A stretch of DNA of 64,000 nucleotides from a virus (Duplodnaviria; Caudoviricetes), in IMG/VR virus record IMGVR_UViG_3300021430_000864, positions 1 to 64,000 of that record, one strand, 5' to 3'. Positions 20,092 through 45,208 of the stretch are shown here, in pieces. The position numbers were made by a program, and so were the translations under genes. Under the pieces are notes generated by a model. The model saw only the letters and a list, made by a program, of their open reading frames with translations. It searched no databases and had not been told where the DNA came from. Numbering within the stretch: position 1 is the first letter of the stretch; every line of letters starts with the position of its first letter.

Positions 20092-20092
20092 T

Positions 20093-22083: not shown

Positions 22084-22089
22084 TTTTCA

Positions 22090-22097
22090 TATTTATA
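22090..22097 (+). promoter_or_regulatory. Putative late promoter motif TATTTATA
   Basis: 10 nt before ATG 22108. Confidence 0.6.
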
Positions 22098-22107
22098 TTA
22101 AAAAAAC

Positions 22108-27359: not shown

Positions 27360-30300
27360 ATGGCATTAATAAAGATAAACACAGGTAATTTTGATGGTGA
27401 GACCGGAATTATAACATTTTATCCTTGCACGGGTGGTACAATAAGTTTAGGTACTGTCGTGATGCCATATTATTATGAAACAAATTATTACTTAGGTACA
27501 TATTCTGTTTTCTTTCCGGCATTAGATAAAACGTGTGTTGCTGAGATACCATGTCCGACACCTTCTTCAACCCCAACTCCTACAACAACACCGACTGCCA
27601 CTCCAACACCTTCAATTACTCCGACACTTACTCCGACACCTACAAGAACCCCTACAAGAACTCCGTCACCTACAAGAACTCCATCGGTAACGACAACACC
27701 ATCCCCGTCAGTTACTCCATCAATCACACCTTCAGCATCACCTGAAGTAACACCTACTATTACCCCAACTGTAACTCCAAGTACGAGTGTTACACCGACC
27801 GAGACTCCAACGGTAACACCGACTGTTACCCCATCGACATCGGTAACGCCAACTGTTACCCCAAGTGAGACACCATCTTTAACGCCAACTGTTACCCCAT
27901 CGACATCGGTAACCCCTACAGTCACACCAAGTGAAACACCAACTGTTACACCAACTGTGACATCTACAGTCACACCGACCATAACACCAAGTGAGAGTGT
28001 CACTCCTACGGTTACTCCGAGTGAAACACCAACAGTTACACCCACAATTACTCCTAGTGTGTCAGTTACCCCAACATTAACACCTACTGAAACACCAACA
28101 AATACACCAACTGTAACCCCAAGCACTAGTGTGACCCCTACAGTCACACCAAGTGAAACGCCAACTATTACTCCTACTATTACTCCATCAACATCGATAA
28201 CTCCAACGGTTACACCGACTGAGACTCCTACTATAACACCAACTGTAACGCCTTCAACAAGTGTTACGCCGACCGTTACTGCTACTGTCACACCAACCAT
28301 AACACCAACTATCACACCTAGTACTTCTATAACACCAACGGTAACCCCAAGTGAGACACCCGCTATTACACCGAGTTTAACTCCAACTACATCTGTAACA
28401 CCAACAATCACCCCTACAGTTACCGAAACGGTAACACCAACAGTTACACCATCAACAAGTGTTACACCGACCGTTACTGCAACAGTAACACCTACTGTTA
28501 CACCTTCAACTAGTGTAACCCCGACCGTTACATCAACCGTTACCCCAACTATAACACCGACAATCACTCCAAGCACATCAGTAACACCAACTGTTACTGC
28601 GACTGTTAGTGCAACAGTAACACCAACCATTACACCCACAACGAGTATTACCCCTACGGTAACCCCAACCGAGACACCAACCATTACTCCTACTATTACT
28701 CCATCAACATCGATAACTCCAACGGTTACACCGACTGAGACCCCCACTATAACGCCGACAATCACTCCATCAACAAGTGTTACCCCTACGGTAACACCAA
28801 CTGTTACTTCAACTGTAACACCAACCGTGACTCCAAGCACATCAGTAACACCAACTGTTACACCCACTGAAACACCGACAATCACACCAACTGTTACTCC
28901 AAGTAGTTCTGTTACACCGACAATCACACCAACTGTTACTTCAACTGTAACACCGACAATCACTCCAAGCACATCAGTAACACCCACAACTTCAGTAACT
29001 CCAACGGTGACATCGACTATTACCCCTACAGTAACACCTAGTGTTTCTGTTACCCCAACTATTACACCTACTATCACACCCACGGTAACACCATCCACTT
29101 CTGTTACACCAAGTACCTCAGTTACCCCAAGTTTCACACCGACTGTAACCGCGACCGTTACTCCTACGGTAACACCAACACCCGCACCATCATGTGATAT
29201 TGATTATACAAGATTACCGTCACCAACTCCAACCACAACACCAACACCATCTTTAACACCTACAGTGACACCAACAATTACTGCCACTATAACACCAACC
29301 ATTACACCAAGTACATCAATTACTCCTACCGTAACCTCAACCATCACTCCAACTGTAACACCAAGTACTTCTGTAACACCAACGATTACCACTACAGTTA
29401 CCCCTACGGTAACACCATCAGTATCGGTAACTCCAACTATTACCCCAACCGTAACCGCAACAGTAACACCTACAGTAACCCCAAGTACTTCAATTACACC
29501 AACATTGACATCAACTGTTACTCCGACAGTAACACCAACTATAACACCATCAACAAGTGTTACACCAAGTGTAACTCCAACAATTAGTGCAACAGTTACA
29601 CCAACCATCACACCTACAACGAGTATTACTCCAACAGTAACCCCAACAATTAGTGCAACAGTTACACCAACTGTAACTCCAAGCACTTCTATTACCCCTA
29701 CAGTAACTCCAACATTGACGGCAACTGTAACACCCACTGTTACCCCATCAGTATCAGTAACTCCAACAGTAACTCCGAGTACATCAGTAACACCAACTAT
29801 AACATCTACTGTAACTGCGACAATAACACCTACTGTCACTCCAAGTGTATCAGTAACACCTACTATTACTCCAACAAGAACAGCATCGGTTACGCCAACT
29901 ATAACTCCAACTATAACACCATCAACAAGTGTTACCCCAACCATTACACCAACAGTAACTCCAACTATAACTCCAACTATAACACCAAGTACTTCTGTAA
30001 CACCTACAGTAACCCCAACAGTAACACCGTCAAGTTCGGTGACACCTACCATAACACCTACTATTAGTGCTACTATAACACCTACAGTAACACCTTCAAC
30101 AAGTGTCACCCCATCAACTTCAGTTACTGCAACAGTTACACCAACAATTACTCCAACAGTAACACCTAGTGTATCTGTTACACCAACTATTACAACAACT
30201 CAAACGCCAACAGTAACTCCTTCAACTTCAGTTACCCCAACTATAACCCCTACGATAACACCAACTATCACCCCAAGTACTTCAGTTACCCCAACGGTGA

Positions 30301-33300
30301 CTGCAACTATTACTCCCACAATCACACCAACCGTTACCCCGAGTAGTTCGGTAACACCAACTATAACGCCAACAATTACACCAACAGTAACCTCAACAGT
30401 AACACCGACAGTTACTCCATCGGTATCAGTAACACCAACAATTACTCCTACGGTTAGTGCTACAGTTACACCAACGATAACCCCAAGCACAAGTGTGACC
30501 CCTTCAACGAGTGTAACACCAACAGTAACCCCTACCATTACACCAACGGTAACCCCTACGGTAACCCCAAGTACATCTATAACTCCAACTATAACACCAA
30601 CTATAACCCCTACTCAAACACCATCAACATCGGTAACTCCAACTATTACCGCAACAATTACACCCACAATTACCCCAACTATAACACCATCAACATCGGT
30701 AACTCCCACTATAACACCAACATTAACAGCAACTGTTACACCTACGGTAACCCCAACAGTAACTCCAAGTACTTCGGTTACACCATCAACATCAGTAACA
30801 CCTTCAACAAGTGTTACCCCAACCATAACCCCAACAGTTACACCAACCGTAACTGCAACTGTGACTCCAACAAGAACACCAAGTACTACAGTAACCCCAA
30901 CAGTAACTCCAAGTACGAGTGTTACACCATCTATAACTCCAACAATTACACCAACAATCACCGCAACAGTAACACCTACAGTAACACCATCAACTAGTGT
31001 AACACCATCAACATCAGTTACACCAACTGTTACTGCAACCATTACTCCAACCATTACTCCAACAGTAACACCATCAACATCGGTTACTCCGACTGTTACT
31101 CCAACTATTACTCCTACGATAACACCTACAGTAACACCATCAACAAGTATTACCCCAACCATTACACCAACAATTACTCCTACTGTAACATCAACTGTAA
31201 CTCCCTCAACTTCTGTTACACCAACTATTACCCCTACAGTAACACCTACGGTTACACCGTCAACATCTATTACACCAACCATCACACCGACAAGAACGGC
31301 ATCAGTAACACCTACTATAACCCCTACGGTCACACCAAGTACATCGGTAACTCCATCAACAAGTGTTACTCCAAGTACTTCTATTACACCAACAGTTACA
31401 CCTACAAGAACAGCATCAGTAACTCCAACAATTACACCAACGGTTACACCTTCAACTTCAGTAACTCCAACAATTACACCTACAATTACTCCTACGGTAA
31501 CCCCAAGTACTTCGGTAACACCGACAGTGACACCAACGGTGACTCCGACAGTTACATCTAGTACATCAGTTACTCCTACAATAACACCTACAAGAACCGC
31601 AACAGTTACACCTAGTACATCGGTAACACCTACAATAACACCAACAATTACTTCAACTATAACGCCTACAGTGACCCCAACGGTGACTCCATCGACTAGT
31701 GTTACACCATCAACAAGTATTACCCCAACTGTAACACCATCAGTTACTCCAACAATAACCCCAACAATAACCCCAACAAGAACCCCAAGTACATCGGTAA
31801 CACCGACAGTAACTCCAAGTACATCGGTAACACCTACAAGAACAGCATCAGTAACACCTACTATAACCCCTACGGTCACACCAAGTACATCAGTTACACC
31901 AACAATTACACCTACCGTTACACCATCAACATCAGTAACTCCTACTATCACTCCAACGGTTACGCCAACCATTACCCCTACAAGAACACCAAGTACATCG
32001 GTAACTCCTAGTACATCTATAACTCCCACTGTTACGCCAACCATTACCCCTACAAGAACACCAAGTACATCAGTTACCCCATCAGTTACCTCATCGGTTA
32101 CACCTACGGTTACACCATCAACTAGTGTTACACCAACTATTACTCCAACAAGAACACCAAGTGTATCCGTTACACCAACCATTACACCTACCATAACACC
32201 TACTGTAACCCCAACTATTACACCATCAACAAGTGTTACACCATCAACAAGTATAACACCTACTATTACTCCAACAAGAACGGCATCAGTAACTCCGACG
32301 GTTACGCCAAGTACGTCAGTAACTCCATCAACTAGTATTACTCCAACCATTACACCAACCATCACACCAACAAGAACCGCATCGTTAACACCAACAGTTA
32401 CTCCAAGTACATCTATTACACCGAGTACATCAGTAACTCCATCAACTAGCGTTACTCCAACTATTACACCAAGTGTTACACCAACCATTACCCCTACAAG
32501 AACACCTAGTACATCGGTTACACCAAGTGTGACCCCAACCATCACACCAACAAGAACACCATCAACAAGTGTTACACCAAGTGTAACTCCAACAAGAACA
32601 GCATCAGTTACTCCAAGTACTTCTATTACACCATCAATTACACCAAGTAGAACACCATCTATCACCCCAACAGTTACCCCAAGTACTTCTATTACACCAT
32701 CAATTACACCAAGTAGAACACCATCTATCACCCCAACAATCACTCCAACTATCACACCTTCAACAAGTATAACACCTACTATTACTCCAACAAGAACGGC
32801 ATCAGTAACTCCGACGATTACACCAACGGTTACTCCATCAACTTCAATAACACCGAGTGTTACACCATCTGTCACACCAAGTAGAACACCATCTATCACC
32901 CCAACAGTTACACCTTCAACAAGTGTAACACCATCCATCACACCAACAGTAACCCCTAGTACATCAGTAACACCTTCGATTACACCATCTAGAACGCCAA
33001 GTATAACACCTACGGTTACACCATCAACATCAATTACTCCAACAGTAACACCTTCAACAAGTGTAACACCTTCGATTACTCCATCGAGAACACCAACCAT
33101 TACCCCTACAAGAACACCATCAACTTCAATAACACCAAGTGTTACTCCATCGAGAACACCATCAATCACACCAACGGTTACACCAAGTACGTCAATAACA
33201 CCATCTATTACCCCATCTATTACCCCAACCATCACACCTAGCACATCAGTTACACCAAGTGTAACCCCATCAAGAACACCATCTATAACACCAACCATAA

Positions 33301-35573
33301 CACCAACACGTTCAGTAACACCATCAACAAGTATAACACCCACAATCACACCTACACGTTCAGTAACACCAACATCATCTATTACCCCAACCATAACACC
33401 AACACGTTCAGTAACCCCAACACGTTCAGTAACACCCACACGTTCAGTAACTCCGACACCAACAAGAACACCATCAATAACACCTACACGTTCAGTAACA
33501 CCAACGATTACACCATCACCAAGTCCACAGTATATAAACGCAATATTCCAATCATGTTGTCCGGGTGACACCACACTTTATTACGGTAGAGTTCCAATTG
33601 ACGCAATGTCGGGTGACATATTTTATTTACCGGATGCTATGATATGTGGTACATTTATTGTTACGGGAGGTCCCGGTGGTGTGATTGCTCAACAATATTT
33701 TGGTACATGTGAAGATTGTATTGCAGAATCTTTAGTATTTTGTCCTTCACCTACACCAACCCCAACATCAACTGTTACTCGTACACCAACAAGAACACCA
33801 TCTATCACCCCAACTATTACACCAACACGTTCCGTAACACCTACACGTTCAGTAACACCAACATCATCTATTACCCCAACCATAACACCTACACGTTCAG
33901 TAACTCCGACACCATCTATCACACCCACAATAACCCCAACACGTTCTGTAACACCAACACCATCGGTAACTGCGACTCGTTCAGTAACTCCTACACGTTC
34001 AGTAACCCCAACACGTTCAGTAACACCTACACGTTCAGTAACTCCGACACCAACAAGAACACCATCAATAACACCTTCACCATCAATGGCGATTGGTTAT
34101 GTTTATTTATTACCATGTTGTGATGGTGGTGGTTTCACGGCAAATTCACAATTTTTAAGTGTTACCACTTCATTGGTGTGGTTACAAGCAACAAATAGAC
34201 AAGGATATACAATTGTAATAAATGGGTGTTGTTATGTGATTGAGGGTTATTCACCAACATTTAGTGCACCAAATTTCACAGGTGTTGATGGGTATTTTGA
34301 TTCTTCATCATTTGTTGCAGAATCATGTCAACAATGTATTGCGGTTAACCCATGTCAATCACATCAATACCAATTGGAACCATGTGCCGCTTGTTGTGGA
34401 ATATCTGGACCCCAAACAATTCAGTTTGGTTGTGAAATCGATGACCCAAATACTTTAGTGGGTAGTATAATTTCAATAAATGGTTGTTGTTATGTTGTAC
34501 AAACATATCTTGGACCGGGAGCACCGAATGCGGGTACTATTGCATATGGACCGTTTGACTTATGTAACGATTGTCAGGTATATTACCCATGTCCGACACC
34601 AACACCAACCCCAACACGTTCAGTAACACCAACACCATCAAGAACACCGTCAGTTACACCATCAAGAACACCATCTATCACCCCAACTAGGACAATAACA
34701 CCAACTAGGACAATAACACCAACTCGTTCTATAACACCTACATCATCTATTACCCCAACAAGAACTCCTTCACCAACTCCTTCACCACTCCCTTGTTATT
34801 GTCACACAATTATAATTGACCAAGATGACATTGACCCAGTTTTTGGGGGACCGATTATTGAAGTAATTGAATGTGATGGTCAACCAAATAATGAACAATT
34901 TAACACTGCAGGAACATATGCTCGTTGTTACATAGAAGTTCAAAATTTCTACGCATTTGATTCATTAGGTCTTACTTATGAACCTACATTATCATCATGG
35001 ACAAACACATTTACACCATGTACAGGTCACGGAGATTGTGTTGTACCTACACCTACTCCAACACCTACTCCAACACCAACACCGTCAGTTACACCGGCTT
35101 GTAATTGTATAGATTATTCACTTAGTGGATTAGAGGAAGCGACATATATAGAGTACATTGATTGTAACGGAAACTCTCAAGTTATAAACGACCCAAGTTT
35201 TTGGACACTTAGTAGCTCTTCAATCAACTTATGTGCGTGTGAGGATTCAATACAAACAGATACACGTGATATTAGAATAGGTTCTAATGGTTCGTGTCCT
35301 GAATGTACATGTTATGAAATATTTATTGACCCACAAGACATAGCAATTGCGGATGATAATACGGTTTACTTCTACTACCAATGTTGTGATGGTTCATGGT
35401 ACATACAACCATACTATTCACCGGGAATGCAACCAAGTCTTTGTATTACTCGACCAATACATTTCGGTATAGTTTTACAAGGAACTTTAGTGACAGCATT
35501 TAACTCATATTCCGGAGCGGGTTCACCATGTTGTGGAGGACTTAGAAACTGTAACTGTTTTGAAACATGCTAA
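27360..35573 (+). CDS. Giant mucin-like Thr/Pro/Ser-rich protein with Cys-rich modules (2737 aa), probable virion appendage
   Basis: ~65-aa N-terminal domain, ~1990-aa PTS tract, then six Cys-rich modules separated by PTS linkers; no signal peptide; lies between baseplate and tail-collar genes. Confidence 0.8.
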   Translation: MALIKINTGNFDGETGIITFYPCTGGTISLGTVVMPYYYETNYYLGTYSVFFPALDKTCVAEIPCPTPSSTPTPTTTPTATPTPSITPTLTPTPTRTPTRTPSPTRTPSVTTTPSPSVTPSITPSASPEVTPTITPTVTPSTSVTPTETPTVTPTVTPSTSVTPTVTPSETPSLTPTVTPSTSVTPTVTPSETPTVTPTVTSTVTPTITPSESVTPTVTPSETPTVTPTITPSVSVTPTLTPTETPTNTPTVTPSTSVTPTVTPSETPTITPTITPSTSITPTVTPTETPTITPTVTPSTSVTPTVTATVTPTITPTITPSTSITPTVTPSETPAITPSLTPTTSVTPTITPTVTETVTPTVTPSTSVTPTVTATVTPTVTPSTSVTPTVTSTVTPTITPTITPSTSVTPTVTATVSATVTPTITPTTSITPTVTPTETPTITPTITPSTSITPTVTPTETPTITPTITPSTSVTPTVTPTVTSTVTPTVTPSTSVTPTVTPTETPTITPTVTPSSSVTPTITPTVTSTVTPTITPSTSVTPTTSVTPTVTSTITPTVTPSVSVTPTITPTITPTVTPSTSVTPSTSVTPSFTPTVTATVTPTVTPTPAPSCDIDYTRLPSPTPTTTPTPSLTPTVTPTITATITPTITPSTSITPTVTSTITPTVTPSTSVTPTITTTVTPTVTPSVSVTPTITPTVTATVTPTVTPSTSITPTLTSTVTPTVTPTITPSTSVTPSVTPTISATVTPTITPTTSITPTVTPTISATVTPTVTPSTSITPTVTPTLTATVTPTVTPSVSVTPTVTPSTSVTPTITSTVTATITPTVTPSVSVTPTITPTRTASVTPTITPTITPSTSVTPTITPTVTPTITPTITPSTSVTPTVTPTVTPSSSVTPTITPTISATITPTVTPSTSVTPSTSVTATVTPTITPTVTPSVSVTPTITTTQTPTVTPSTSVTPTITPTITPTITPSTSVTPTVTATITPTITPTVTPSSSVTPTITPTITPTVTSTVTPTVTPSVSVTPTITPTVSATVTPTITPSTSVTPSTSVTPTVTPTITPTVTPTVTPSTSITPTITPTITPTQTPSTSVTPTITATITPTITPTITPSTSVTPTITPTLTATVTPTVTPTVTPSTSVTPSTSVTPSTSVTPTITPTVTPTVTATVTPTRTPSTTVTPTVTPSTSVTPSITPTITPTITATVTPTVTPSTSVTPSTSVTPTVTATITPTITPTVTPSTSVTPTVTPTITPTITPTVTPSTSITPTITPTITPTVTSTVTPSTSVTPTITPTVTPTVTPSTSITPTITPTRTASVTPTITPTVTPSTSVTPSTSVTPSTSITPTVTPTRTASVTPTITPTVTPSTSVTPTITPTITPTVTPSTSVTPTVTPTVTPTVTSSTSVTPTITPTRTATVTPSTSVTPTITPTITSTITPTVTPTVTPSTSVTPSTSITPTVTPSVTPTITPTITPTRTPSTSVTPTVTPSTSVTPTRTASVTPTITPTVTPSTSVTPTITPTVTPSTSVTPTITPTVTPTITPTRTPSTSVTPSTSITPTVTPTITPTRTPSTSVTPSVTSSVTPTVTPSTSVTPTITPTRTPSVSVTPTITPTITPTVTPTITPSTSVTPSTSITPTITPTRTASVTPTVTPSTSVTPSTSITPTITPTITPTRTASLTPTVTPSTSITPSTSVTPSTSVTPTITPSVTPTITPTRTPSTSVTPSVTPTITPTRTPSTSVTPSVTPTRTASVTPSTSITPSITPSRTPSITPTVTPSTSITPSITPSRTPSITPTITPTITPSTSITPTITPTRTASVTPTITPTVTPSTSITPSVTPSVTPSRTPSITPTVTPSTSVTPSITPTVTPSTSVTPSITPSRTPSITPTVTPSTSITPTVTPSTSVTPSITPSRTPTITPTRTPSTSITPSVTPSRTPSITPTVTPSTSITPSITPSITPTITPSTSVTPSVTPSRTPSITPTITPTRSVTPSTSITPTITPTRSVTPTSSITPTITPTRSVTPTRSVTPTRSVTPTPTRTPSITPTRSVTPTITPSPSPQYINAIFQSCCPGDTTLYYGRVPIDAMSGDIFYLPDAMICGTFIVTGGPGGVIAQQYFGTCEDCIAESLVFCPSPTPTPTSTVTRTPTRTPSITPTITPTRSVTPTRSVTPTSSITPTITPTRSVTPTPSITPTITPTRSVTPTPSVTATRSVTPTRSVTPTRSVTPTRSVTPTPTRTPSITPSPSMAIGYVYLLPCCDGGGFTANSQFLSVTTSLVWLQATNRQGYTIVINGCCYVIEGYSPTFSAPNFTGVDGYFDSSSFVAESCQQCIAVNPCQSHQYQLEPCAACCGISGPQTIQFGCEIDDPNTLVGSIISINGCCYVVQTYLGPGAPNAGTIAYGPFDLCNDCQVYYPCPTPTPTPTRSVTPTPSRTPSVTPSRTPSITPTRTITPTRTITPTRSITPTSSITPTRTPSPTPSPLPCYCHTIIIDQDDIDPVFGGPIIEVIECDGQPNNEQFNTAGTYARCYIEVQNFYAFDSLGLTYEPTLSSWTNTFTPCTGHGDCVVPTPTPTPTPTPTPSVTPACNCIDYSLSGLEEATYIEYIDCNGNSQVINDPSFWTLSSSSINLCACEDSIQTDTRDIRIGSNGSCPECTCYEIFIDPQDIAIADDNTVYFYYQCCDGSWYIQPYYSPGMQPSLCITRPIHFGIVLQGTLVTAFNSYSGAGSPCCGGLRNCNCFETC
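27555..33527 (+). repeat. Degenerate coding repeat: [VI]TP[TS] and STS[VI]TP units
   Basis: About 6 kb of ACN/CCN/TCN-rich codons; exact 59-bp duplication at 28167-28225 and 28683-28741. Confidence 0.95.
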
Positions 35574-35590
35574 TAAAATGATGATTTAAC

Positions 35591-35598
35591 TATTTATA
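35591..35598 (+). promoter_or_regulatory. Putative late promoter motif TATTTATA
   Basis: 13 nt before ATG 35612. Confidence 0.6.
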
Positions 35599-35611
35599 AA
35601 GAGATAATAAA

Positions 35612-37021
35612 ATGCCAACACCAACTCCAACACCTTCAGTTAGTCCGGGATGTAGTAATTACTTATTCAAACTACAAGACGTGTATTATGCAACACAAGC
35701 TGGTCCCTTTAATTTATCAGGAACAACCGATTTAGGTTCAACTATATTAATAGAATCTGGTGTTACATTAAGTCAACTACAATCAGGATTTACCGCGACG
35801 ATATGTACAACAATAACCGGAGGTACAATACAAAGTATTGGGAGTTGTGACACATTATTCAATTACGTAATATTCATACCATCACCAACACCTACCCCAT
35901 CTATTACGCCAACCCCAACACCATCAGTTTCAATAACACCTACAATCACCCCAACTATAACACCATCAAGCTCAAGTGTTCAACAAGTTTCAGTAACACC
36001 AACACCAACACGAACTGTTACACCAACCCCAACGCGCTCAGTGACCCCAACACCATCTAGTAGTTTACCACCTGTAGGTGAATATTATTACCGACCAAAC
36101 AGTTGGGCCCCACCATATATTAATCAAGGTAGTGGGGATAATTACTTAGTAACATCGAATAGTTTATCGACAGAGATTAGTACGTCTGTTATTGATTACA
36201 CAACAACCGATTGGTCATTTTCATTATGGGGTTACCCTCAATTTGATACCACCGTACCACCTTTTGACAATTATGGTAAAACCTATGTTTCAACCTTAGT
36301 TTCAATTTGTGTACCGGGAGCAACACCTCCTTTCCCTGACACAACATTAACCAATCTTACAATTGCAGTTGAATATACTTCAGGGGCAACGTTGGTTAAC
36401 GATTTAGTTGTTTATATGTTGGATGATTTGAATAGAAGTGCGAAATGGACATGGGCGATTAATTCTGACCCAAATGCAACCATAACGGGTGTTAGTCCTT
36501 TAGAAATGTGGGATAATATTAATTTCGGTAGTACTTTAAATTCGGATAGATTCTCAAATATTGTGATTACACATGATAATTCTTTAGTTATTAGTTCACC
36601 ATCAGGTAGTACAATGGCATATTGGAATGGAGAATTACTTGAATTAAAATCGTACACCGAAAGTGGTCCTGTATATCCTCATATTAGTAATTACAATTCA
36701 TTAAATGATTCTAAATTCTATATAGCACAAGGTAGTTTAATGGGTAATAATGGTGCTTTTCATCCATTGAGCACAAATATTGATAACCCAATATATTTCC
36801 CATCAATAATTTTATCTCCATCCGAATCACTTACAATTTATAATGGTGGTGTTGTACAAACATCAATAACCACAGGTTTGGGTCAAGCATATATTTGGAA
36901 TTTTGATAACTTATCGGCATCTCATTTGGAGTGTTTAGACCAAACAAATGTAACAGTTCCACAATTTCTGTTAGAACAAAAAAGTGGTGGTGGGGGAATA
37001 CAAACCTATATTCTTGTATAA
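35612..37021 (+). CDS. PTS-linker protein with C-terminal LamG/concanavalin-like domain
   Basis: TPTPTPS linkers; WSFSLW...NIVITHD...YWNGE...LTIYNGG pattern resembles LamG jellyroll. Confidence 0.55.
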   Translation: MPTPTPTPSVSPGCSNYLFKLQDVYYATQAGPFNLSGTTDLGSTILIESGVTLSQLQSGFTATICTTITGGTIQSIGSCDTLFNYVIFIPSPTPTPSITPTPTPSVSITPTITPTITPSSSSVQQVSVTPTPTRTVTPTPTRSVTPTPSSSLPPVGEYYYRPNSWAPPYINQGSGDNYLVTSNSLSTEISTSVIDYTTTDWSFSLWGYPQFDTTVPPFDNYGKTYVSTLVSICVPGATPPFPDTTLTNLTIAVEYTSGATLVNDLVVYMLDDLNRSAKWTWAINSDPNATITGVSPLEMWDNINFGSTLNSDRFSNIVITHDNSLVISSPSGSTMAYWNGELLELKSYTESGPVYPHISNYNSLNDSKFYIAQGSLMGNNGAFHPLSTNIDNPIYFPSIILSPSESLTIYNGGVVQTSITTGLGQAYIWNFDNLSASHLECLDQTNVTVPQFLLEQKSGGGGIQTYILV

Positions 37022-37032
37022 CAATTGAATAG

Positions 37033-37040
37033 TATTTATA
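37033..37040 (+). promoter_or_regulatory. Putative late promoter motif TATTTATA
   Basis: 11 nt before ATG 37052. Confidence 0.6.
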
Positions 37041-37051
37041 AGTAAAAAACA

Positions 37052-38689
37052 ATGGGATTAAACATAAAATTATATAATATTATTACCGATGGTAGTTATA
37101 GTTTAAGATATAAAACCGGTGATTATCCGTATCCTGAAACTGTGGATTCAACATTTACATTTTATGGTAGTGGGCTAACCGATTCAAGCATTGTGATTAC
37201 AGGTTTGACATTTGATACTCAATATTGGGTAAAAATGACCGACGAGACTACCGGAAGATATATAATTAAAAATATATATACAAACGACAGCAAGGCGTTT
37301 CCATGTTATGATACAATATGTTTTGATGTTGAGGTTTTATGTTTATCTCAAACCCCAACTCCAACACCATCATCAATTCCCGTACAAACTCAAACTCCAA
37401 CCCCAACACCTACTCTAACTCCAACACCATCATATATTTGTAGTGATAGTGTTAGAAATACTTTAAGTGCAACAAATGGATATAGTGCGGTGGGTAGACA
37501 AGGTATGGTTTACTCTTCAGTAACCAATAAAGCATATGTTTTAGATTCAGATAGTGTTACCGTAAAATCTTTTGTTCCAAATTCAACAACATTAACTACT
37601 GAATTCACATGGTCAGGAACTTCATTATTATTGGGTTATAACCCAACTGAAAATAAATTATACAGTTGGCGTTCAACAATTAGTCCAATTAACATTTTAA
37701 TCAGAGATTTAGACACTAACACATCAACTTCAGTTTCAATTAGTGGAATAACAGGACAGGGGTTAGGTAAAATTTTATTCAATTCAACATTAAATAAGAT
37801 TTATGCATTCTCACAAAGTGTAAATTTCACAACCGCACAGATTAGTGTTATTGATGGTACAACTAATACATTTACAAACCAATACACGGGTATAACGTTA
37901 ACAAATCCAAATGCTGTTGTACATAACCCAAACAATAATAAGTTATACATAGCACAAGGTGGTAGAATCTATTCTTGTTCAGGTAATGACCTTACTTTAG
38001 ATGTTGCAACATTACCGGTAACATCGGGTTTAATTGCATTAGATGAGATAAATAATATAATTTATATGGTTGATTCAACAACTGTTTATAAAATAGATGC
38101 GTCAACTAATACCACAATTTCAAACACATCTATAACAGGTAGTTGGGATTCCTCATCTTTAAGGTCAATGACTTATAACCCTGACAATGGAAAACTTTAC
38201 ATTAGTAGATATGTAACAGGTTCAGACGGATTTTTAGGTTCTTTAAACCCAACATCCGGTGCGTTTACAGAAATTATTGGTGATGGTATATCAGAACCAC
38301 TTTACGCACCAACAAATACAATTTATGGTATTAACGGCGATGCACTGTACGAAATATGTGGTTCAGAATCAATACTACCTCAAACAACTCCTACCCCAAC
38401 ACCAACAAAAACCCCCACCCCAACACCATCAATTTCATATAAAACATGGATAATACAAGAATGTACATCACCATGTGTTGGGGGACAATGTGGATGTGGT
38501 GAACAAATATCAACAACAGTTTATACGGCACCAAATGTTACTGATTTAACAGACCCATCTACCGTTATTTGTATCAATACAACATTAACATTGGCATTTA
38601 CAGGATTTTTCGCACAAAGTGGTGAGATATATGATGTGAACTCAGGTACACCAACACAATATTGTACGATTGGTCTTGACCCATGTTAA
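37052..38689 (+). CDS. PTS-linker protein with YVTN/YncE-like beta-propeller
   Basis: Repeats YSSVTNKAYV, GYNPTENKLYS, FNSTLNKIYA, HNPNNNKLYIA, LDEINNIIY, YNPDNGKLYIS at propeller-blade spacing; ends in Cys. Confidence 0.7.
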   Translation: MGLNIKLYNIITDGSYSLRYKTGDYPYPETVDSTFTFYGSGLTDSSIVITGLTFDTQYWVKMTDETTGRYIIKNIYTNDSKAFPCYDTICFDVEVLCLSQTPTPTPSSIPVQTQTPTPTPTLTPTPSYICSDSVRNTLSATNGYSAVGRQGMVYSSVTNKAYVLDSDSVTVKSFVPNSTTLTTEFTWSGTSLLLGYNPTENKLYSWRSTISPINILIRDLDTNTSTSVSISGITGQGLGKILFNSTLNKIYAFSQSVNFTTAQISVIDGTTNTFTNQYTGITLTNPNAVVHNPNNNKLYIAQGGRIYSCSGNDLTLDVATLPVTSGLIALDEINNIIYMVDSTTVYKIDASTNTTISNTSITGSWDSSSLRSMTYNPDNGKLYISRYVTGSDGFLGSLNPTSGAFTEIIGDGISEPLYAPTNTIYGINGDALYEICGSESILPQTTPTPTPTKTPTPTPSISYKTWIIQECTSPCVGGQCGCGEQISTTVYTAPNVTDLTDPSTVICINTTLTLAFTGFFAQSGEIYDVNSGTPTQYCTIGLDPC

Positions 38690-38718
38690 AAACGGTTTAC
38701 AATAAACAACATTTTCCA

Positions 38719-38726
38719 TATTTATG
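38719..38726 (+). promoter_or_regulatory. Putative late promoter motif TATTTATG
   Basis: 4 nt before ATG 38731. Confidence 0.5.
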
Positions 38727-38730
38727 ATAT

Positions 38731-39081
38731 ATGCCATCAATAAATCAGTATCAAATAACAATATCAAACTTTTCAGGTAACACACCGTGTGAAGGTTATT
38801 ATATCTACACAGGTCTTACCCATAATATTGATGATGCGGATTATATAAATGGTTCAGCCACATTAATACCAATATCCACAGGATATACATTTAATGTGAA
38901 TGTATTAGACACATATCCACAAATATTTTTATTTGTTGAACATTGTGATGGACACATAAACCCCATACCGGGTTCAACACCGAAATTACAAGGTGGATAT
39001 CAAATGGCGTTACTCGATTTAAGATGTGACGATTGTTTTGTTCCTTGTACGTTTGGTGTGAATGTTATAAAATTAATTTAA
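38731..39081 (+). CDS. Small Cys-containing structural protein of the PTS cluster
   Basis: 116 aa, late motif upstream, C-terminal CDDCFVPCTFGVNV. Confidence 0.65.
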   Translation: MPSINQYQITISNFSGNTPCEGYYIYTGLTHNIDDADYINGSATLIPISTGYTFNVNVLDTYPQIFLFVEHCDGHINPIPGSTPKLQGGYQMALLDLRCDDCFVPCTFGVNVIKLI

Positions 39082-39098
39082 GTAATAGATAATAGTAA

Positions 39099-42000
39099 AT
39101 GGCGATATATGTTTTTCAACAATGTAGTAATCCAGCAAATACTGCTGAATTTGACATAGACACCGGAATCTACTCCGTTGGTGATGTTCTTTTTTCTTTC
39201 ACTAATGGTGCTACATGTTGGGAAATGACCGCAACTCCAGGTTCGGGACCGGCTAGTGCACCTGACTTTGGTCCTTATGATAATTGTACCGAATGTACAA
39301 CAGATACAAATGCATGGGAATTTCAAAGTTGTTGTAACCCATCATCAACCGTATATTTTGGAATAACAAATGGTGATTTAAGTAGTTTCGCACCAAGTTC
39401 TATTATTGAATATAGTGGTGAATGTTGGCAATTTACTGGTAATTTTTACTCAGGAACAACCGGCACGGTTGGTACACTCATACCGGATGATATTACGGGA
39501 ACTGATTGTATTGATTGTGAGTTAACTTGTCCAACTCCAACTCCAGCACCTAGCATTACCCCAACTCCAAGTATTGCGGTAAAGACAAAGAATTTTTATA
39601 ATTGTTGTGATATTGGTGGTGAAATCTATACAACACTAAGTGATAATGAATATAACGCCGGTGATACCTATTATAACGGTACAGGATGTTACATCGCAAC
39701 TGCAGATGGTCCGGGTGGTGGGTCAAATGTTGATGATACGGGTACATGGACAAAAATAACGGGTTGTTCAAATGGAGAATGTCCGACATGTCCAACTCCA
39801 ACTCCAACTCCAACCCCAACACCACCACCAGCATCTTTAACTCCAACCCCAACTCCAACCCCAACTGCGGATGATAATTGTGGTTGTTGGACAATAACAA
39901 TATTACAAATAGATTTAGATGCGGCGACGGGAAATACCGACATTAGTTTGAATGGTAAGGTATTTTTTCCGTACACACCTTGTGGTGTTGCTACAACAGA
40001 AATAACAGGGTCAACAACCGTTGCAGGAGATTATAGTTTTTGTTTGAATGATGACCAAATACCACCTTCCGGTGCGTATTATTTTGTTAGTGATTTTCAA
40101 GTAAGTGCTAGTAGTTATTGGACTGATAATGAAACCTCTTGTACCACCAATGGTGAATGTACTCCTGAACCTTCAGTAACACCAACACGTTCAGTAACCC
40201 CAACTATAACACCAACACGAACACCAACACCTACCGTTACAGCATCGGCATCGGTAACACCTCAACCATCACCATCATTTAATGATTTTCCATCACCAAC
40301 ACCAACAATTTCGGTAACACCATCAATAACTCCTACACCATCTATTACACCATCTATCACCCCAACACCATCTGAAACACCACCGCTAGAACTTTATACG
40401 TGGACTTTCATTGATTGTTGTAGTACTGAACCTGAACCACTTAATTTAGTAAAATTTAATATATTAGGGACACCAACAACAATAAGTCTTAGTTCACCAA
40501 ACACCTATCTTTTTGATGGTAAGTGTTATACCGCACATTCAGGACCTGAATATCCTGCGGGACCATTTCCGGTACAAACAGTAGGACCTATTTATCCTGA
40601 TTGTGAAGAGTGTTCTATTGAAAACCCGTGTCCAACCCCAACCCCGACACCTTCAGAATCGGTAACACCGACACCAACCGAAACACCGACACCAACCGAA
40701 ACACCAACAGTTACCCCAACAGTTACCCCAACAGTTACCCCAACCTTTACACCATCAATATCAATAAGTACAACACCCAAACCCACCTCAAGTGTAACAC
40801 CTACTATTACACCCGAACCCACCTCAAGTGTAACACCTACTATTACACCCGAACCCACTTCAAGTACAACTCCGACCGTAACCCCAACAGTAACTTCAAG
40901 TACAACTCCATCAATTACATCAAGTGTAACACCAACAACAACACCATCGACTTCACCAACACCAACTATTGGCACATCACCTTCAAATACACCAAGTATA
41001 ACACCTTCTGAAACTCCCAGTAACACCCCAACACAAACATCGAGTGTAACTCCAACTGAAACACCAACATTAACTCCAACTGAAACACCAACAAATTCAG
41101 TTACCCCATCGGTTTCATCAACACCAACACCAACTTTAGGTGCATCACCATCAATTACTCCAAGTACCACACCTTCTGAAACACCTTCTGAAACACCGTC
41201 AACAACACCAAGTGAAACACCATCTGTAACACCATCCGAAACTCCAAGTGTTACACCATCATCCACTTTGGGTGTGTCACCATCTGTAACACCATCAACA
41301 ACACCAAGTGAAACACCTTCTGAAACACCAAGTGTTACACCAACAAACAGTTTAACACCAACACCAACAACAACTCCATCGATTTCTATTACACCAAGTG
41401 TAAGTTTAACACCAACATTAACACCAACACCCTCTTCAAGTCCTTTTTCACCATGTGTAAATGATACTGTTACACCAAAAGGTGTGAAAATAACATTTAA
41501 TTCTGGCTCAATTTATACAAATTGTTCGGTTTATACGGGATTAACTTCAACAACCATAACAGGTTCAACTTATTGTACGTCAATGTCAACAGGTGACATC
41601 TGTGATTTAACAGGGATTACTGCAACGTTGATGGAAATGTATGTTAAGATTGTGTGTGAAGGGTGTTGTGAACAAGTATTTAGAGTTAACTTAGATGAAT
41701 GTTGTGGGAACACGGGTGTTACACCAACACCAACCCCTACTTTGGGTGTGTCACCATCAATTACCCCAAGTATAACACCATCCACAACTCCGAGTGTATC
41801 GGTTACACCATCAGCATCTATAACTCCTTCGATTAGTTTAAGTGCAACACCAACAGCAACTCCAAGTTTAACACCACCACCATCAGGATTGGCGTGTTAT
41901 TGTTATGTTTTTGATATTGACCCGAGTGAATTTGGAATATATGGTGGACCAATTGTTGAATATTTAGATTGTACGTCAACCCCACAAAGCAATTCATTTA

Positions 42001-43010
42001 GTGGTGCGGGAACATATTCAGGTTTCTGTATTTCAGAAATAACAAATTTCTATTGGTTTGATAATGACGGAAATCCTGTCGAGGTATCGGCATCCACATA
42101 TACTAATACATTAAACCCATGTACCGTTGATGGTGATTGTATACCACCATCCGAACCAAGTTCAACCCCAACACCTACTCCAAGTTTAACACCAACATCT
42201 AGTATTATGGTGTCACCGTCAATCACCCCTACGCCAACACCAACAACATCTTTGGCTCCTTGTTATGAAAATATAAGTATTAACGTAATTAGTAGTGGTT
42301 TAATAGTATATACCGATTGTTGTGATGTTGTAAAAGAAGTTTATTCTGATTCGGGTGAATATATATTAACCGATTGTGTTAAAACAAATACAATATCAGG
42401 TCTAAATGCCACAATAGGTACTGTCGATTATACAACAGGTACACCTTGTGTTTGTTCAACACCCACACCTACACCAACTGAAACATTAACACCTACACCA
42501 ACAAACACACCAACCCCAACACCGTCAACATCAACACAAAATGAATTTTGTGAATGTAACACCTATTCAATAGAATTTACCCAAAATTGTAATGAAGCAA
42601 TTAGTTGGATTGATTGTAATGATGGTACACCAATGAGTGAACAAGGATTATACTTTGGTTTACCTACAGAGGAGTTTACCGACGGAACAATAATTAATGT
42701 TTGTTCTTGTTCTACACCTATTGTTGGTTGTCCGGGAGTAACTATAACGTTAATTTCAGCTGGATGTAATCCTTACTATTATTACACAGTTAAAGAAGTT
42801 ATAGATTGCAACACAGGTGACGATTTTGGTGAAACATATGTTGTTAGAAGTACAACACCACTTTCAATTGGTGAGTTTATAAATGCAACAATAACACCTA
42901 TACCTGCAACTTGTGCGTGGAAGGTTATTAGTTCAACATCAGGACCATCATATGATGGTACGGTGTCTAGTTCATGTGGAACAGGAATACCTGTAACATG
43001 TTGTTGTTAA
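39099..43010 (+). CDS. Mucin-like PTS/Cys-module protein (1303 aa)
   Basis: Multiple F..CC...C[YW]...C..C modules alternating with TPTPS linkers and a ~270-aa Glu-containing PTS stalk; ends VTCC. Confidence 0.8.
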   Translation: MAIYVFQQCSNPANTAEFDIDTGIYSVGDVLFSFTNGATCWEMTATPGSGPASAPDFGPYDNCTECTTDTNAWEFQSCCNPSSTVYFGITNGDLSSFAPSSIIEYSGECWQFTGNFYSGTTGTVGTLIPDDITGTDCIDCELTCPTPTPAPSITPTPSIAVKTKNFYNCCDIGGEIYTTLSDNEYNAGDTYYNGTGCYIATADGPGGGSNVDDTGTWTKITGCSNGECPTCPTPTPTPTPTPPPASLTPTPTPTPTADDNCGCWTITILQIDLDAATGNTDISLNGKVFFPYTPCGVATTEITGSTTVAGDYSFCLNDDQIPPSGAYYFVSDFQVSASSYWTDNETSCTTNGECTPEPSVTPTRSVTPTITPTRTPTPTVTASASVTPQPSPSFNDFPSPTPTISVTPSITPTPSITPSITPTPSETPPLELYTWTFIDCCSTEPEPLNLVKFNILGTPTTISLSSPNTYLFDGKCYTAHSGPEYPAGPFPVQTVGPIYPDCEECSIENPCPTPTPTPSESVTPTPTETPTPTETPTVTPTVTPTVTPTFTPSISISTTPKPTSSVTPTITPEPTSSVTPTITPEPTSSTTPTVTPTVTSSTTPSITSSVTPTTTPSTSPTPTIGTSPSNTPSITPSETPSNTPTQTSSVTPTETPTLTPTETPTNSVTPSVSSTPTPTLGASPSITPSTTPSETPSETPSTTPSETPSVTPSETPSVTPSSTLGVSPSVTPSTTPSETPSETPSVTPTNSLTPTPTTTPSISITPSVSLTPTLTPTPSSSPFSPCVNDTVTPKGVKITFNSGSIYTNCSVYTGLTSTTITGSTYCTSMSTGDICDLTGITATLMEMYVKIVCEGCCEQVFRVNLDECCGNTGVTPTPTPTLGVSPSITPSITPSTTPSVSVTPSASITPSISLSATPTATPSLTPPPSGLACYCYVFDIDPSEFGIYGGPIVEYLDCTSTPQSNSFSGAGTYSGFCISEITNFYWFDNDGNPVEVSASTYTNTLNPCTVDGDCIPPSEPSSTPTPTPSLTPTSSIMVSPSITPTPTPTTSLAPCYENISINVISSGLIVYTDCCDVVKEVYSDSGEYILTDCVKTNTISGLNATIGTVDYTTGTPCVCSTPTPTPTETLTPTPTNTPTPTPSTSTQNEFCECNTYSIEFTQNCNEAISWIDCNDGTPMSEQGLYFGLPTEEFTDGTIINVCSCSTPIVGCPGVTITLISAGCNPYYYYTVKEVIDCNTGDDFGETYVVRSTTPLSIGEFINATITPIPATCAWKVISSTSGPSYDGTVSSSCGTGIPVTCCC

Positions 43011-43060: not shown

Positions 43061-45208
43061 ATGAGTTTTTTAAGTAATAATAATTCGGAATTTTTGTCTG
43101 TAAGAATCACCCAAAAGGGTAGAAATTCTATTGCGAAAGGTAATTTCGTTATTTCATATTTTCAAATCGGAGATTCTGAATTTGACTACACATCACCATT
43201 TGATAATTTAACAGGTTTAAATTCTGCACCGTTCCAATCGGTATTTGCACCTTTAGATAAAGAAGGTGGTGTCAAATATCCATATAAATTGGATAGTTCA
43301 TCTAATTCAACCGTTTATGGTATTCCGGTACAATCATCGACAACAGATACATTAAGAAACATAATGGGTCCGGCAGGTTTTGTTGGTCAGTATGTTGAAT
43401 ATGATAGTGATGATTGTACAGGCACAAATATTAAATGTGAAACTCAACAAATATCATTGTCAGCAATGACAGGAACTAATACCGTTGTCGTACCAACAGG
43501 TTCGAGCTTTAATGATTGTGATTTTATTACAATAGTTTTTGGTGGATTTTGTGGTAACGACCCAAATAATCCGGTCATCACAGGGGAAACAAATAGTTTA
43601 ATATATAGAATCACCGGTGTTACGGGAAATACACTTTACTTAGACAGAACAACTCCGAATTTCTCAGGTTGTACAGGGCCGGCACAAGTGGTTTGTAATT
43701 CATGTGAAAATGAATACCCTGTTTCGGTTGAATTCAATCCAAATTGTAGACCCGCAGAAATTGACCCATCACAACAACTTAATGCATGGACAATGAATGT
43801 TGTTTGGGACATGAAACCAATTGGTTTCGATGTAAACGGTATTGATGAGAATTTAACAGGATTCACATCAAATAAACACGTATCAACAAAACAATTTTTA
43901 GGTTACACAACTTCAAGTGGTCAAACATTTACAAATATGACAGGAGGAACTATCAGTAACCCAACTTCATATTATAATTCATATGATGAACAAATTGAAG
44001 TAACACCTGAAGAACAAAGATGTATTGCGGTTATTCATTATTCGGAATTGGGTGATTTAAAAAATGACCCCGAAAGATTTTTCAAATATGATGATTACAT
44101 CAGTACAAACAACACAGAAGCAGATGCATTGTTAGAAGATTCTATTGGTAATGCGATTACTGATTTAGAATACTTTGAGGTATATATTCCTTTTATTCAA
44201 TATCATAGAAATACAGGAACAACAATAGGTGGTTTATTCACTATGGATACAACTGATTATTATGTTAGTTCTAGTATTAATTCGTTTCAGAAAATTAAGT
44301 TTAGATATCTTTTAGATGAAACGGGTGCTAAGGTTGGTAAAATTTTTGTAAACAATAAAATAATTGTTATTGACGACCAAGAATTGGTTGCGGTAATGGA
44401 CTATAAATCAAATAGAAAATACACATTACCTTCACCAAAAATCAATTTATTACCAAGTGATTTACCGGCATCGCAATCATTCTATTCAGGTTCAACCGAA
44501 CAGACAATATGGTTAACATATATGTTTAATTACACAGGTGATACACAGTTAAACTCATTACCTTGTAATTACTATACTAAATTTGAAACAACCACAGGTA
44601 GTACATATTACAACACACCATGTCAGTTATATGTGAAATTCAATGACGGTTATTTCTCTAAAATGTTAACCGGTACAACGTGTGATGCTGCCAATGGTTT
44701 TATTGCAAATCAATTTCAATTATTAATACAAGTGACCGATTTAGGTGATTTACCTTCACCAAGTCAATGGAAATTACTTGATATGACATCTTATATACCT
44801 AATCATACAGTTGGTAACACAATTAACCCAAGTAATTTAGTTAACTATTCTTTCCAAGTAACATTTGACATGTTTGAAGATGATACGTCAATTTTTGATT
44901 TGGAAACGTACATTGGTGAAATACCAAATGAACCATCATCTGACCCACAATTTGGTGATGAACAACCATTTCCTGGAAGTGTTAAATTAATAAGAGCAAC
45001 TGACATTGAAAAAATGAATTTCTTGGTTAATTTACCTGCAAGTCAATTCAACACTTCTCAAAACCCGACATACACAACAGGACAAGACAAGAGAATAACC
45101 GAAGTTGCGTTACTGAATGAAAATAAGGAAGTTATGGTTATTGGTAAAACCGCGAATCCAATTAAGAGAACAGGTACTCAAGTTTTTGCCATAAAAATAG
45201 ATTTCTAA
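43061..45208 (+). CDS. Tail-collar/tail-fibre attachment protein (DUF3751-like termini), 715 aa
   Basis: N-terminal ITQKGRNSIAKG..ISYFQIGD and C-terminal ITEVALLNENKEVMVIGK match the two ends of tail-collar fibre domains. Confidence 0.55.
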   Translation: MSFLSNNNSEFLSVRITQKGRNSIAKGNFVISYFQIGDSEFDYTSPFDNLTGLNSAPFQSVFAPLDKEGGVKYPYKLDSSSNSTVYGIPVQSSTTDTLRNIMGPAGFVGQYVEYDSDDCTGTNIKCETQQISLSAMTGTNTVVVPTGSSFNDCDFITIVFGGFCGNDPNNPVITGETNSLIYRITGVTGNTLYLDRTTPNFSGCTGPAQVVCNSCENEYPVSVEFNPNCRPAEIDPSQQLNAWTMNVVWDMKPIGFDVNGIDENLTGFTSNKHVSTKQFLGYTTSSGQTFTNMTGGTISNPTSYYNSYDEQIEVTPEEQRCIAVIHYSELGDLKNDPERFFKYDDYISTNNTEADALLEDSIGNAITDLEYFEVYIPFIQYHRNTGTTIGGLFTMDTTDYYVSSSINSFQKIKFRYLLDETGAKVGKIFVNNKIIVIDDQELVAVMDYKSNRKYTLPSPKINLLPSDLPASQSFYSGSTEQTIWLTYMFNYTGDTQLNSLPCNYYTKFETTTGSTYYNTPCQLYVKFNDGYFSKMLTGTTCDAANGFIANQFQLLIQVTDLGDLPSPSQWKLLDMTSYIPNHTVGNTINPSNLVNYSFQVTFDMFEDDTSIFDLETYIGEIPNEPSSDPQFGDEQPFPGSVKLIRATDIEKMNFLVNLPASQFNTSQNPTYTTGQDKRITEVALLNENKEVMVIGKTANPIKRTGTQVFAIKIDF

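Follow-up and report, generated by a model that had tools for sequence, protein, structure and literature searches.

Giant (Thr/Ser-X)n stalk proteins in a hypervariable locus of an uncultured freshwater jumbo myophage: a candidate host-adhesion fibre cassette

The DNA analysed here (the window) was the first 64 kb of the 72,775-bp virus record IMGVR_UViG_3300021430_000864, and positions are given in window coordinates unless another locus is named. The interval 27360-43010 was filled by five open reading frames (ORFs) on the + strand, encoding proteins of 2737 amino acids (aa; the giant protein, 27360-35573), 469 aa (35612-37021), 545 aa (37052-38689), 116 aa (38731-39081) and 1303 aa (39099-43010). 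The original prediction had described this interval as a locus of mucin-like architecture with stalks in all five genes. The locus proved to be real, and stalks rich in Pro, Thr and Ser (PT stalks) together with small Cys-rich modules were found in four of the five proteins, while the 116-aa protein had no stalk. In agreement with the same prediction, direct reading of the translations revealed nothing resembling a signal peptide at the N-termini of the locus proteins. No family match was obtained for any of the five proteins with Pfam (E≤0.1) or PHROGs, and the searches run in the same way on ten flanking proteins added nothing for the locus. Matches to phrog_15511 fell on the PT linkers and were discarded as low-complexity, and the minus-strand ORFs within the tract (up to 986 aa) were discarded as by-products of the C-rich codon repeat.

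Composition and parity analysis was adopted to characterize the giant stalk, which extended over 1997 residues (residues 62-2058; 27543-33533, + strand), close to the approximately 1990 residues originally predicted. Its overall composition was 40.8% Thr, 20.4% Pro, 14.2% Ser, 11.7% Val and 7.7% Ile, and the tract was strictly alternating, not merely rich in Pro, Thr and Ser. One parity was occupied by 72% Thr and 27% Ser, which gave 99% Thr/Ser on alternate positions, and the other parity (X) by Pro (41%), Val (23%), Ile (15%), Thr (9%), Arg (3.5%) and Ala (3%). There were 407 Pro in the tract, all 406 successive spacings between them were even, and zero phase slips occurred over the 1997 residues. 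All the shorter linkers of the locus obeyed this rule too, and each stalk is a strict polymer of a dipeptide, (Thr/Ser-X)n. Alternating linkers of at least 12 residues were restricted in this contig to the four stalk-bearing proteins of the locus, bar two short stretches. In relative G002 the tract reached 4156 residues with 97% Thr on one parity, X = P/N/V and 878 Pro without a slip, and in relative G003 it comprised 2179 residues with 99.7% Thr/Ser on one parity, X = P/V/S/I and again no slip. The X residues drifted between relatives (P/V/I versus P/N/V) at constant Thr/Ser parity, therefore the alternation itself is the conserved feature. Gly, Asn and Asp were almost absent from the tract of the window, and from this near lack of turn-forming residues we infer that the chain must take an extended form, whether single or aligned laterally with other chains. 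At about 0.3 nm per residue, the contour length of the giant stalk would be about 0.6 micron. A tape-measure protein, a reading prompted by the lack of one in a paper on large freshwater 'moraphages' (PMC12619734), was rejected, since the tract cannot be helical and the gene stands after, not before, the baseplate genes.

The possibility that the tract had been expanded during assembly, raised with the original prediction, was not borne out. In the tract DNA, TRF detected degenerate repetition whose periods ranged from 12 to 132 nt and whose copies matched at 60-80%, and the longest exact repeat was 60 nt. The 8.2-kb frame was open throughout, the other two + frames held 180 and 41 stops, and codon use in the tract agreed with that elsewhere in the phage. 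Other metagenomes contained at least four distinct versions of the giant gene, with tracts of 2179 to over 4100 residues. The giant ORF was complete in the window (2737 aa) and in G003 (2940 aa), encoded at least 4267 aa in G002 (L012/L099), where one frameshift lies within the tract, and at least 4688 aa in G004, where an N-gap lies inside. Thus, the tract is not an assembly expansion. The frame switch of G002 occurred about 12.8 kb into the giant ORF, where the 4267-aa ORF was followed by a 1073-aa ORF starting within PT sequence; if read through, the protein would have about 5.3 k residues, and sequencing error, real mutation and programmed slippage are all candidates for its origin. About ten related contigs terminated within the tract, and IMG/VR loci L001, L005, L006, L015, L017, L019, L024, L025 and L043 were among those ending in PT sequence. 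The locus is therefore a systematic assembly breakpoint, so that metagenomic catalogues contain too few of the host-range genes of this lineage. The giant protein was not on record in an exact-sequence look-up.

The globular parts of the proteins were then delimited. The giant protein began with a 61-aa N-terminal domain (27360-27542, + strand), a putative anchor that was conserved at the head of PT ORFs. Its C-terminal part (33534-35570, + strand; about 680 residues) carried modules on alternating linkers of 22-119 aa, namely three of the type 'CC...C...CxxC...C' and one of the type 'CxC', followed by a two-domain tip (residues 2582-2737). The tip was modelled as two small beta-sandwiches with a predicted local distance difference test (pLDDT) of about 96, while the opening 100 residues of the model were of poor quality and left the 'CxC' module without a structure. 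No significant relative of the tip was found in PDB by Foldseek (best E 0.13) or by VIA (best Z 3.7 in a wide VIA-align search); the rows returned were generic beta-sandwiches, and BFVD yielded only uncharacterised look-alikes from uncultured phages. A search in 1.84 billion representative proteins recovered just 50 clusters at E≤1e-3, none better than 1e-27. Most of these clusters shared the composition, and a Cys-poor minority, some with signal peptides, probably matched the PT linker only. Judged by such searches, the Cys-rich modules are essentially private to this phage group. In the 1303-aa protein, for which a stalk of about 270 aa with many modules had been predicted, about 11 small Cys-rich modules of at least three families, 63 Cys and eight alternating linkers were identified, the longest linker being a 280-aa stalk (residues 508-787; 40620-41459) and the other seven shorter. 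Over the whole locus, family 1 of these modules (about 70 aa, skeleton CC...C...CxxC...C) was present in seven copies and family 2 (80-95 aa, CxC...C...C...C) in three, and family 3 was a C-terminal pair which was also terminal in many related proteins.

The lectin-like and propeller domains that had been predicted on the shorter proteins stood as leads or better. In the 469-aa protein, a short PT head and a 71-aa domain were followed by PT linkers and a C-terminal domain (residues about 157-469; 36080-37018, + strand). This C-terminal domain is a ConA/LamG-like lead: Atlas features reached 0.97 to Laminin_G_3 clusters, and its structure gave TM 0.58-0.66 to mostly viral ConA-like clusters, while no direct Pfam or PDB sequence match was obtained. 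The 545-aa protein was composed of a 96-aa N-terminal domain, a linker, a propeller (residues 130-439; 37439-38368, + strand), a second linker and an 80-aa Cys module. Direct Pfam search of this protein gave no match. One close homologue of the propeller bears the JGI name YncE-type, and PF10282, PF21783 and PF02239 occurred in distant ones (E 5.7e-10 to 7e-6), so that the middle of the protein is assigned, by transitive homology, to the YVTN/YncE-type beta-propellers. The 116-aa protein may represent an adaptor domain that stands alone.

The locus was preceded, as predicted, by baseplate genes. The baseplate block (11854-23028, + strand), recognised by PHROG and blastp searches, comprised a gp25/W-like protein of 150 aa, a gp6/J-like wedge protein (12308-14140, + strand; phrog_6 and phrog_219, E about 1e-22) and five large proteins without a named family, and its gene starts overlapped or abutted the preceding stops. 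Together with the conserved 1412-aa gene, the PT locus and a conserved 715-aa gene, these baseplate genes formed a 33-kb structural block spanning 11854-45208. Both the 150-aa protein and the wedge had blastp matches to baseplate assembly and wedge proteins of Flavobacterium phage immuto, and in that phage the genes for tail fibres and tail spikes are found downstream of the wedge gene. Among cultured phages, the wedge had its nearest relatives in immuto and in a Microcystis phage, with identities of 27-28%, immuto being the nearest with 28%. The Bacteroidota host suggested in the original prediction is a candidate only. Megablast and tblastn of the two flanking proteins against 50,697 records found no match in cultured phages.

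The 1412-aa upstream flank (23028-27266, + strand), the last gene of the translationally coupled block, started in overlap with the stop of the preceding gene, and 98 relatives of its product were found in IMG/VR. Weak signals toward the gpI/gp7 type were collected for this gene, which had originally been labelled gp7-like. Its family aligned with a 1265-aa immuto protein encoded near the wedge gene (hhalign E 1.3e-4, probability 53%), and Tail_P2_I (PF09684) weakly matched 2 of 28 family members (best E 0.077) and the copy of G005 (E 0.067), while the copy in the window gave no match. Against P2 gpI the top hhalign alignment of the family profile fell on a shared KGT motif and was not significant, nor was the comparison with T4 gp7 (E 0.18). 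A KSKGT...FFL.FLGAP motif at residues about 430-470 was invariant in 28 homologues, and aligned with the KGT motif of the immuto protein and of P2 gpI. The sequence thus hints at a gpI/gp7-type core. In P2 the gene order is J, I and then the fibre gene H; these gpI-like signals combined with this order therefore suggested, short of proof, that a gp7/gpI-class protein is followed here by fibres. The 1412-aa protein is a probable gp7/gpI-class baseplate protein and the probable docking partner of the stalk proteins. Nothing usable was returned for it by Atlas.

The 715-aa downstream flank (43061-45208, + strand) always closed the variable locus. It had 13 relatives in IMG/VR, and public data contained at least 1445 clusters (90% identity) of its family, all annotated as hypothetical. 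No Pfam, PHROG or PDB match was found for the protein, and weak local matches led to two immuto proteins encoded upstream of the immuto tail-fibre gene. The tail-collar/DUF3751 label of the original prediction was unsupported, as neither PF12571 Phage_tail_fib (DUF3751) nor PF07484 Collar matched anything in the contig at E≤10, the family profile showed no significant hhalign similarity to P2 gpH, T4 gp12 or T4 gp10, and the resemblance to these families was limited to an N-terminal motif seen by eye. When profiles of the two flank families were searched against PDB sequences, no match reached E≤1. The 715-aa protein would serve well as a marker gene for this uncultured lineage.

Comparison of relatives revealed the length polymorphism which the original prediction had proposed to look for. 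The interval between the two flanks measured 25 nt in G005, 13.2 kb in G003, 15.8 kb in the window, 23.1 kb in G002 and 27.3 kb in G004. In relative L077 (50% identity) the stalk genes were placed upstream of the baseplate block; therefore the empty interval of G005 demonstrates mobility of the cassette and not necessarily its absence. Three N-terminal domains were conserved. The 61-aa domain of the giant protein headed a PT ORF in 24 related loci of IMG/VR, where identity was 80-95%, and in a further locus with 48% identity; used as query for a census of giant proteins, it gave no match at a database-wide E-value. The 96-aa head of the 545-aa protein was conserved in 11 loci (38-86% identity), and the 116-aa protein had relatives in 8 loci and was exactly 116 aa long in all four where it could be delimited. 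The sequence following these three domains differed from phage to phage, and modules were shuffled among genes. In the closest relative, L082, the ConA-like domain came directly after 1303-type modules and just upstream of the 715-aa gene, a position different from that in the 469-aa gene, with its ORF not delimited. A conserved N-terminus, a shuffled distal end and a hypervariable cassette length together make the classic signature of receptor-binding proteins.

Two kinds of fusion were also found. In relatives at 46-60% identity, the full-length homologue of the 1412-aa protein continued C-terminally into a PT stalk of 300-600 aa with terminal modules, and the 116-aa domain formed the N-terminus of PT-linker/module proteins in P0026, P0063, L035 and L040. 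These fusions tied the stalk proteins physically to conserved baseplate-block proteins. In the window, the 116-aa gene stopped 17 nt before the 1303-aa gene, which lies in another frame, and from sequence the two look like a split adaptor-plus-fibre pair.

A scan for glycosyltransferases outside the locus, as the original prediction had advised, revealed an eight-gene sugar/glycosyltransferase operon on the same contig, with protein and DNA among its candidate substrates. It lies past the end of the window (contig 66174-72632; locus L094 4174-10632, minus strand), 21 kb downstream of the stalk locus, and encodes a methyltransferase, a GT2, a PhyH dioxygenase, a GH130-like protein, a hexapeptide acyltransferase, WbqC, a DegT aminotransferase and a two-domain glycosyltransferase. 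The DegT-like ORF (213 aa) covered the N-terminal part of the family profile alone (best stretch positions 26-98 of 360) and may be truncated or split. The two-domain glycosyltransferase was present at the syntenic place in G001, G002 and G010 with 34% identity, and its N-terminal half recurred in the complete relatives G006 and G007 with 43-44% identity. The contigs of G003, G004 and G005 stopped before the expected place of the island, G005 being a 22%-complete fragment. The companions of this enzyme differed among relatives: G002 carried an FkbM methyltransferase, other GT2s and a UDP-GlcNAc 2-epimerase, and no WbqC. A sub-threshold match to a GT-D-like fold at locus L102 4227-4946 (minus strand) of G002 (E 1.2e-4; 21.9 bits versus a cut-off of 27) was kept as a lead only. 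This fold was originally reported for a transferase acting in the serine-rich-repeat pathway of Fap1. Transferases of the GtfA/GtfB type were not seen in the contig. By analogy, a variable glycosylation island beside a variable stalk recalls the islands of serine-rich-repeat proteins (SRRPs).

The source of the DNA is an uncultured freshwater jumbo myophage with a genome of roughly 300 kb. The genomes of relatives reached 310-335 kb (93-100% estimated completeness), and the contig therefore represents between about a fifth and a quarter of such a genome. T4-type replication genes (single-stranded DNA-binding protein, UvsX-like, DnaB-like, NrdAB, primase and gp46/47-like) were present in the window together with genes for a prohead protease and a sigma factor. 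A 156-aa ORF at 45857-46327 matched a tail-tube PHROG (phrog_4542, E 4e-8) and sits between the RuvC-like resolvase and primase genes, off the main structural block. The 'moraphage' paper mentions core glycosyltransferases and no such stalk proteins, and gives Lys-tRNA ligase as a near-core gene with 24 occurrences in its Table 2 (PMC12619734). No tRNA-synt_2 (Lys-tRNA ligase) match was found in five relatives, including those 93% and 100% complete, and other listed core genes (sigma factor, primase, gp6 and prohead protease) were present. The phage may be related to, and does not necessarily belong to, the 'moraphage' lineage.

Taken together, these results made it probable, if well short of certain, that the locus is a tail-borne host-adhesion fibre cassette with SRRP-like and possibly O-glycosylated stalks. 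It was read as a fibre cassette because it follows the gp25-like and gp6-like block with its overlapping or abutting genes, because the tail-fibre and tail-spike genes of immuto hold the equivalent place, and because propeller and ConA/LamG-like domains are of binding type. The cassette would encode four fibre proteins of modular build together with one small, free-standing adaptor. The conserved 61-aa, 96-aa and 116-aa domains would dock at the baseplate periphery, probably on or near the 1412-aa protein, and the (Thr/Ser-X)n stalks would serve as extended spacers, the giant protein acting as a tether some 0.6 micron long with the conserved two-domain tip at its end. The exchangeable modules (Cys-rich beta-sandwiches, YVTN propeller and ConA/LamG lectin-like domain) would bind ligands of the host surface or matrix. 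In the cytoplasm of the infected cell the stalks would probably be O-glycosylated by the sugar island of the phage, which would stiffen and protect them; granted that the proteins are adhesion fibres of the virion, the chances for and against stalk glycosylation were considered about equal. Such fibres would widen the capture radius of a big, slowly diffusing virion before the baseplate engages, or alternatively would reach through or hold a capsule, sheath or mucilage at that stage.

Several observations weigh against this proposal. The location of all five proteins on the virion is itself inferred, and the locus proteins, one domain pair of which was modelled, matched no known fibre family in Pfam, PHROG or PDB. 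The baseplate identity of the 1412-aa protein came from weak signals, and an AlphaFold2 model of its first 1000 residues, with 28 homologues, reached a pLDDT of 47. Cys-rich domains are unusual in proteins folding in a reducing cytoplasm, and the cysteines of the modules may bind metal instead of forming disulfides after lysis. The glycosyltransferases of the island could instead modify DNA or another target. The motif TATTTATA was found at 11843, 14180, 22090, 35591, 37033 and 43045, 11-21 nt before the ATG of six structural-block genes, and TATTTATG was found at 38719, and three genes of the stalk locus and the 715-aa gene were among the genes preceded in this way; however, the window is AT-rich and its 13 copies of TATTTATA compare with a shuffled expectation of 9.8 +/- 2.9. 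A late-promoter reading of the motif was rejected because this total count is at chance level, the placement alone being suggestive. Scans for sigma-70 promoters and terminators were likewise at chance level.

Among the other explanations, a real though lesser possibility is that the fibres are the same and carry no sugar, their stalks being bare stiff spacers like the Pro/Thr linkers of cellulases and the island serving DNA or another target. Beta-branched residues and Pro by themselves favour an extended chain, and 15-60-aa versions of the linker join modules across the locus as ordinary interdomain linkers do. The glycosyltransferases of viruses often modify DNA, according to a passage of PMC12619734 that cites Pyle 2024; here the island stands 21 kb from the locus, and WbqC is missing in relatives which retain giant stalks. 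On the other hand, a hydroxyl at every second residue over 2000-4100 residues while X drifts is the periodicity expected of modification sites, and the two-domain glycosyltransferase is syntenic in stalk-bearing relatives.

It is unlikely that the proteins are virion filaments of the head, neck or sheath, as in 'hairy' phages or the head filament of phiCbK, and not of the baseplate. The candidate protein for the phiCbK head filament is also giant and low-complexity with a ConA-like domain (PMC3556154), whisker-like tail structures are known in jumbo phages (PMC5259590), and the stalk genes of L077 upstream of the baseplate block indicated that the position is not fixed. Yet the genes lie within the baseplate block in the window and in closer relatives, and a conserved protein of this block carries stalk and modules as fused parts in the more distant relatives.

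Position and fusions also bear on a role outside the virion, in the infected cell or after lysis, as a scaffold or condensate, a decoy, or a matrix gluing lysed material or particles. Long low-complexity tracts can drive condensation, and such a role would agree with the lack of signal peptides and of any structural-family match for proteins whose place on the virion is putative. It was nevertheless considered quite improbable, since the genes stand in the structural block and are fused in relatives with a baseplate-block protein, conserved N-terminal domains with shuffled distal binding modules are typical of receptor-binding proteins, and lectin-like and propeller domains are binders of extracellular type.

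Very improbable was the idea, raised as an alternative in the original prediction, that the Thr face is the working surface, a flat hydroxyl array binding ice or polysaccharide with the modules secondary. The hydroxyls do share one parity and hence one face of an extended strand, and insect antifreeze proteins bind ice through Thr arrays. Known Thr-x-Thr ice-binding faces are, however, rigid beta-solenoids, and turn residues are lacking here; Pro occupies 41% of X positions, about every fourth residue of the chain, and the alternation is also kept in interdomain linkers of 15-60 aa, in which a surface for binding would serve little purpose. Finally, an artefactual tract length, by expansion or mis-join of a much shorter repeat, could draw on the many contigs stopping in the tract and on the N-gap and frameshift in two relatives, and was hardly credible given exact repeats of at most 60 nt, copies matching at 60-80%, the single open frame, and versions of the same gene of 2940, at least 4267 and at least 4688 aa from independent metagenomes.

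If the adhesion-fibre reading is true, an abundant uncultured freshwater lineage captures its hosts in a manner unlike the textbook rigid trimeric fibres, by a flexible thread that may be as long as a micron, consists of a two-residue polymer and probably receives a sugar coat from the phage. This would bear on how virions of very large size and slow diffusion encounter hosts in dilute water or within mucilage, on whether virion glycosylation reaches beyond the mycobacteriophage case, and on why assemblies break at this locus, so that host-range genes are missing from metagenomic catalogues. A bolder proposal, which was put forward tentatively and with doubt prevailing, is that (Thr/Ser-X)n threads anchored on the baseplate, O-glycosylated in the cytoplasm and 0.6 to over 1 micron long constitute a new class of virion appendage, with private Cys-rich mini-domain tips, small adaptor anchors and a sugar coat set by a co-evolving glycosylation island. 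Such threads would make common freshwater jumbo phages 'anglers' with a reach several-fold beyond their own body length. No description of such proteins in phages was found in full-text literature searches.

The known systems were compared with the locus, beginning with phage fibres. Like T4 gp34-37 and gp12 and P2 gpH, the stalk genes follow a wedge gene and combine conserved N-terminal attachment with a variable, recombining distal part. Unlike the locus proteins, those fibres are rigid rods, trimeric and beta-structured, with lengths of about 50-150 nm, compared with a low-complexity chain here up to 10 times longer, and no similarity was detected between them and the locus or flank proteins. 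The head filament of phiCbK is about 200 nm long, flexible and makes the first host contact, and its candidate protein gp76 has 2799 aa, low complexity and a ConA-like lectin domain and was undetected by virion proteomics (PMC3556154). The giant protein shares with gp76 its size, its low complexity as a phage protein and, at the level of the locus, the candidate ConA-like domain; gp76 differs in being Gly/Ala-rich, in its location near head genes and in lacking Cys-rich modules and a sugar island. For mycobacteriophages, a passage of PMC12619734 on Freeman et al. 2023 describes phage glycosyltransferases that glycosylate the C-termini of capsid and tail tube in the virion, that is, in this account, short C-terminal tails of major structural proteins in phages of Gram-positive actinobacterial hosts, unlike the stalks considered here.

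The term 'mucin-like' used in the original prediction held as an analogy of composition. As in gel-forming mucins, Pro/Thr/Ser-rich tracts alternate with Cys-rich domains, and a bottle-brush would result if the tracts were glycosylated. In contrast to mucins, no VWD, CysD or CK (cystine-knot) domains (Pfam, E≤0.1) and no secretion signal were found, and the design is closer to the serine-rich-repeat (SRR) and Ser-Asp adhesins of bacteria. Mucin tracts of this kind are not known to be strict dipeptide polymers, and SRR regions have a dipeptide (Ser-X) rhythm. The Ser-Asp repeats of the staphylococcal adhesins ClfA and SdrC-G are likewise a strict dipeptide repeat used as a stalk, and these stalks are, unlike those of the locus, acidic, hundreds and not thousands of residues long, bacterial and anchored to the cell wall. 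They are glycosylated by SdgA/SdgB on the Ser of each repeat and thereby protected from proteases (PMC3794999, PMC8561734).

The SRR adhesins of Gram-positive bacteria (Fap1, GspB, PsrP and Srr1/2) range from 970 to over 5000 aa with polymorphic stalk length, and are glycosylated sequentially in the cytoplasm by a variable set of dedicated transferases (PMC7661464, PMC6973325). The SRR2 region is an extended stalk which projects the binding region, is glycosylated in the cytoplasm and has a length thought to be matched to the thickness of the capsule (PMC7661464). Giant size, a long repeat stalk of hydroxy amino acids, a projected globular binder and polymorphism of stalk length are shared with the proteins described here. 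Differently, Thr is dominant here and X is Pro/Val/Ile, compared with Ala/Glu/Val in SRR regions; the contig holds no signal peptide on these proteins, no accessory Sec genes, no LPXTG anchor and no GtfA/GtfB; and the binding modules are unrelated, the genes viral and the sequences without homology. With no signal peptide and with C-termini that end in Cys-rich modules, membership in the SRRPs is therefore ruled out, and the resemblance is one of analogues. The known kind to which the proposed cassette belongs is that of phage host-adhesion fibres, and what would be new is the SRRP-like stalk with private tip modules, a genetically simple natural stalk design (Thr/Ser-X without turns) parallel in origin to the bacterial SRR and Ser-Asp repeat adhesins.

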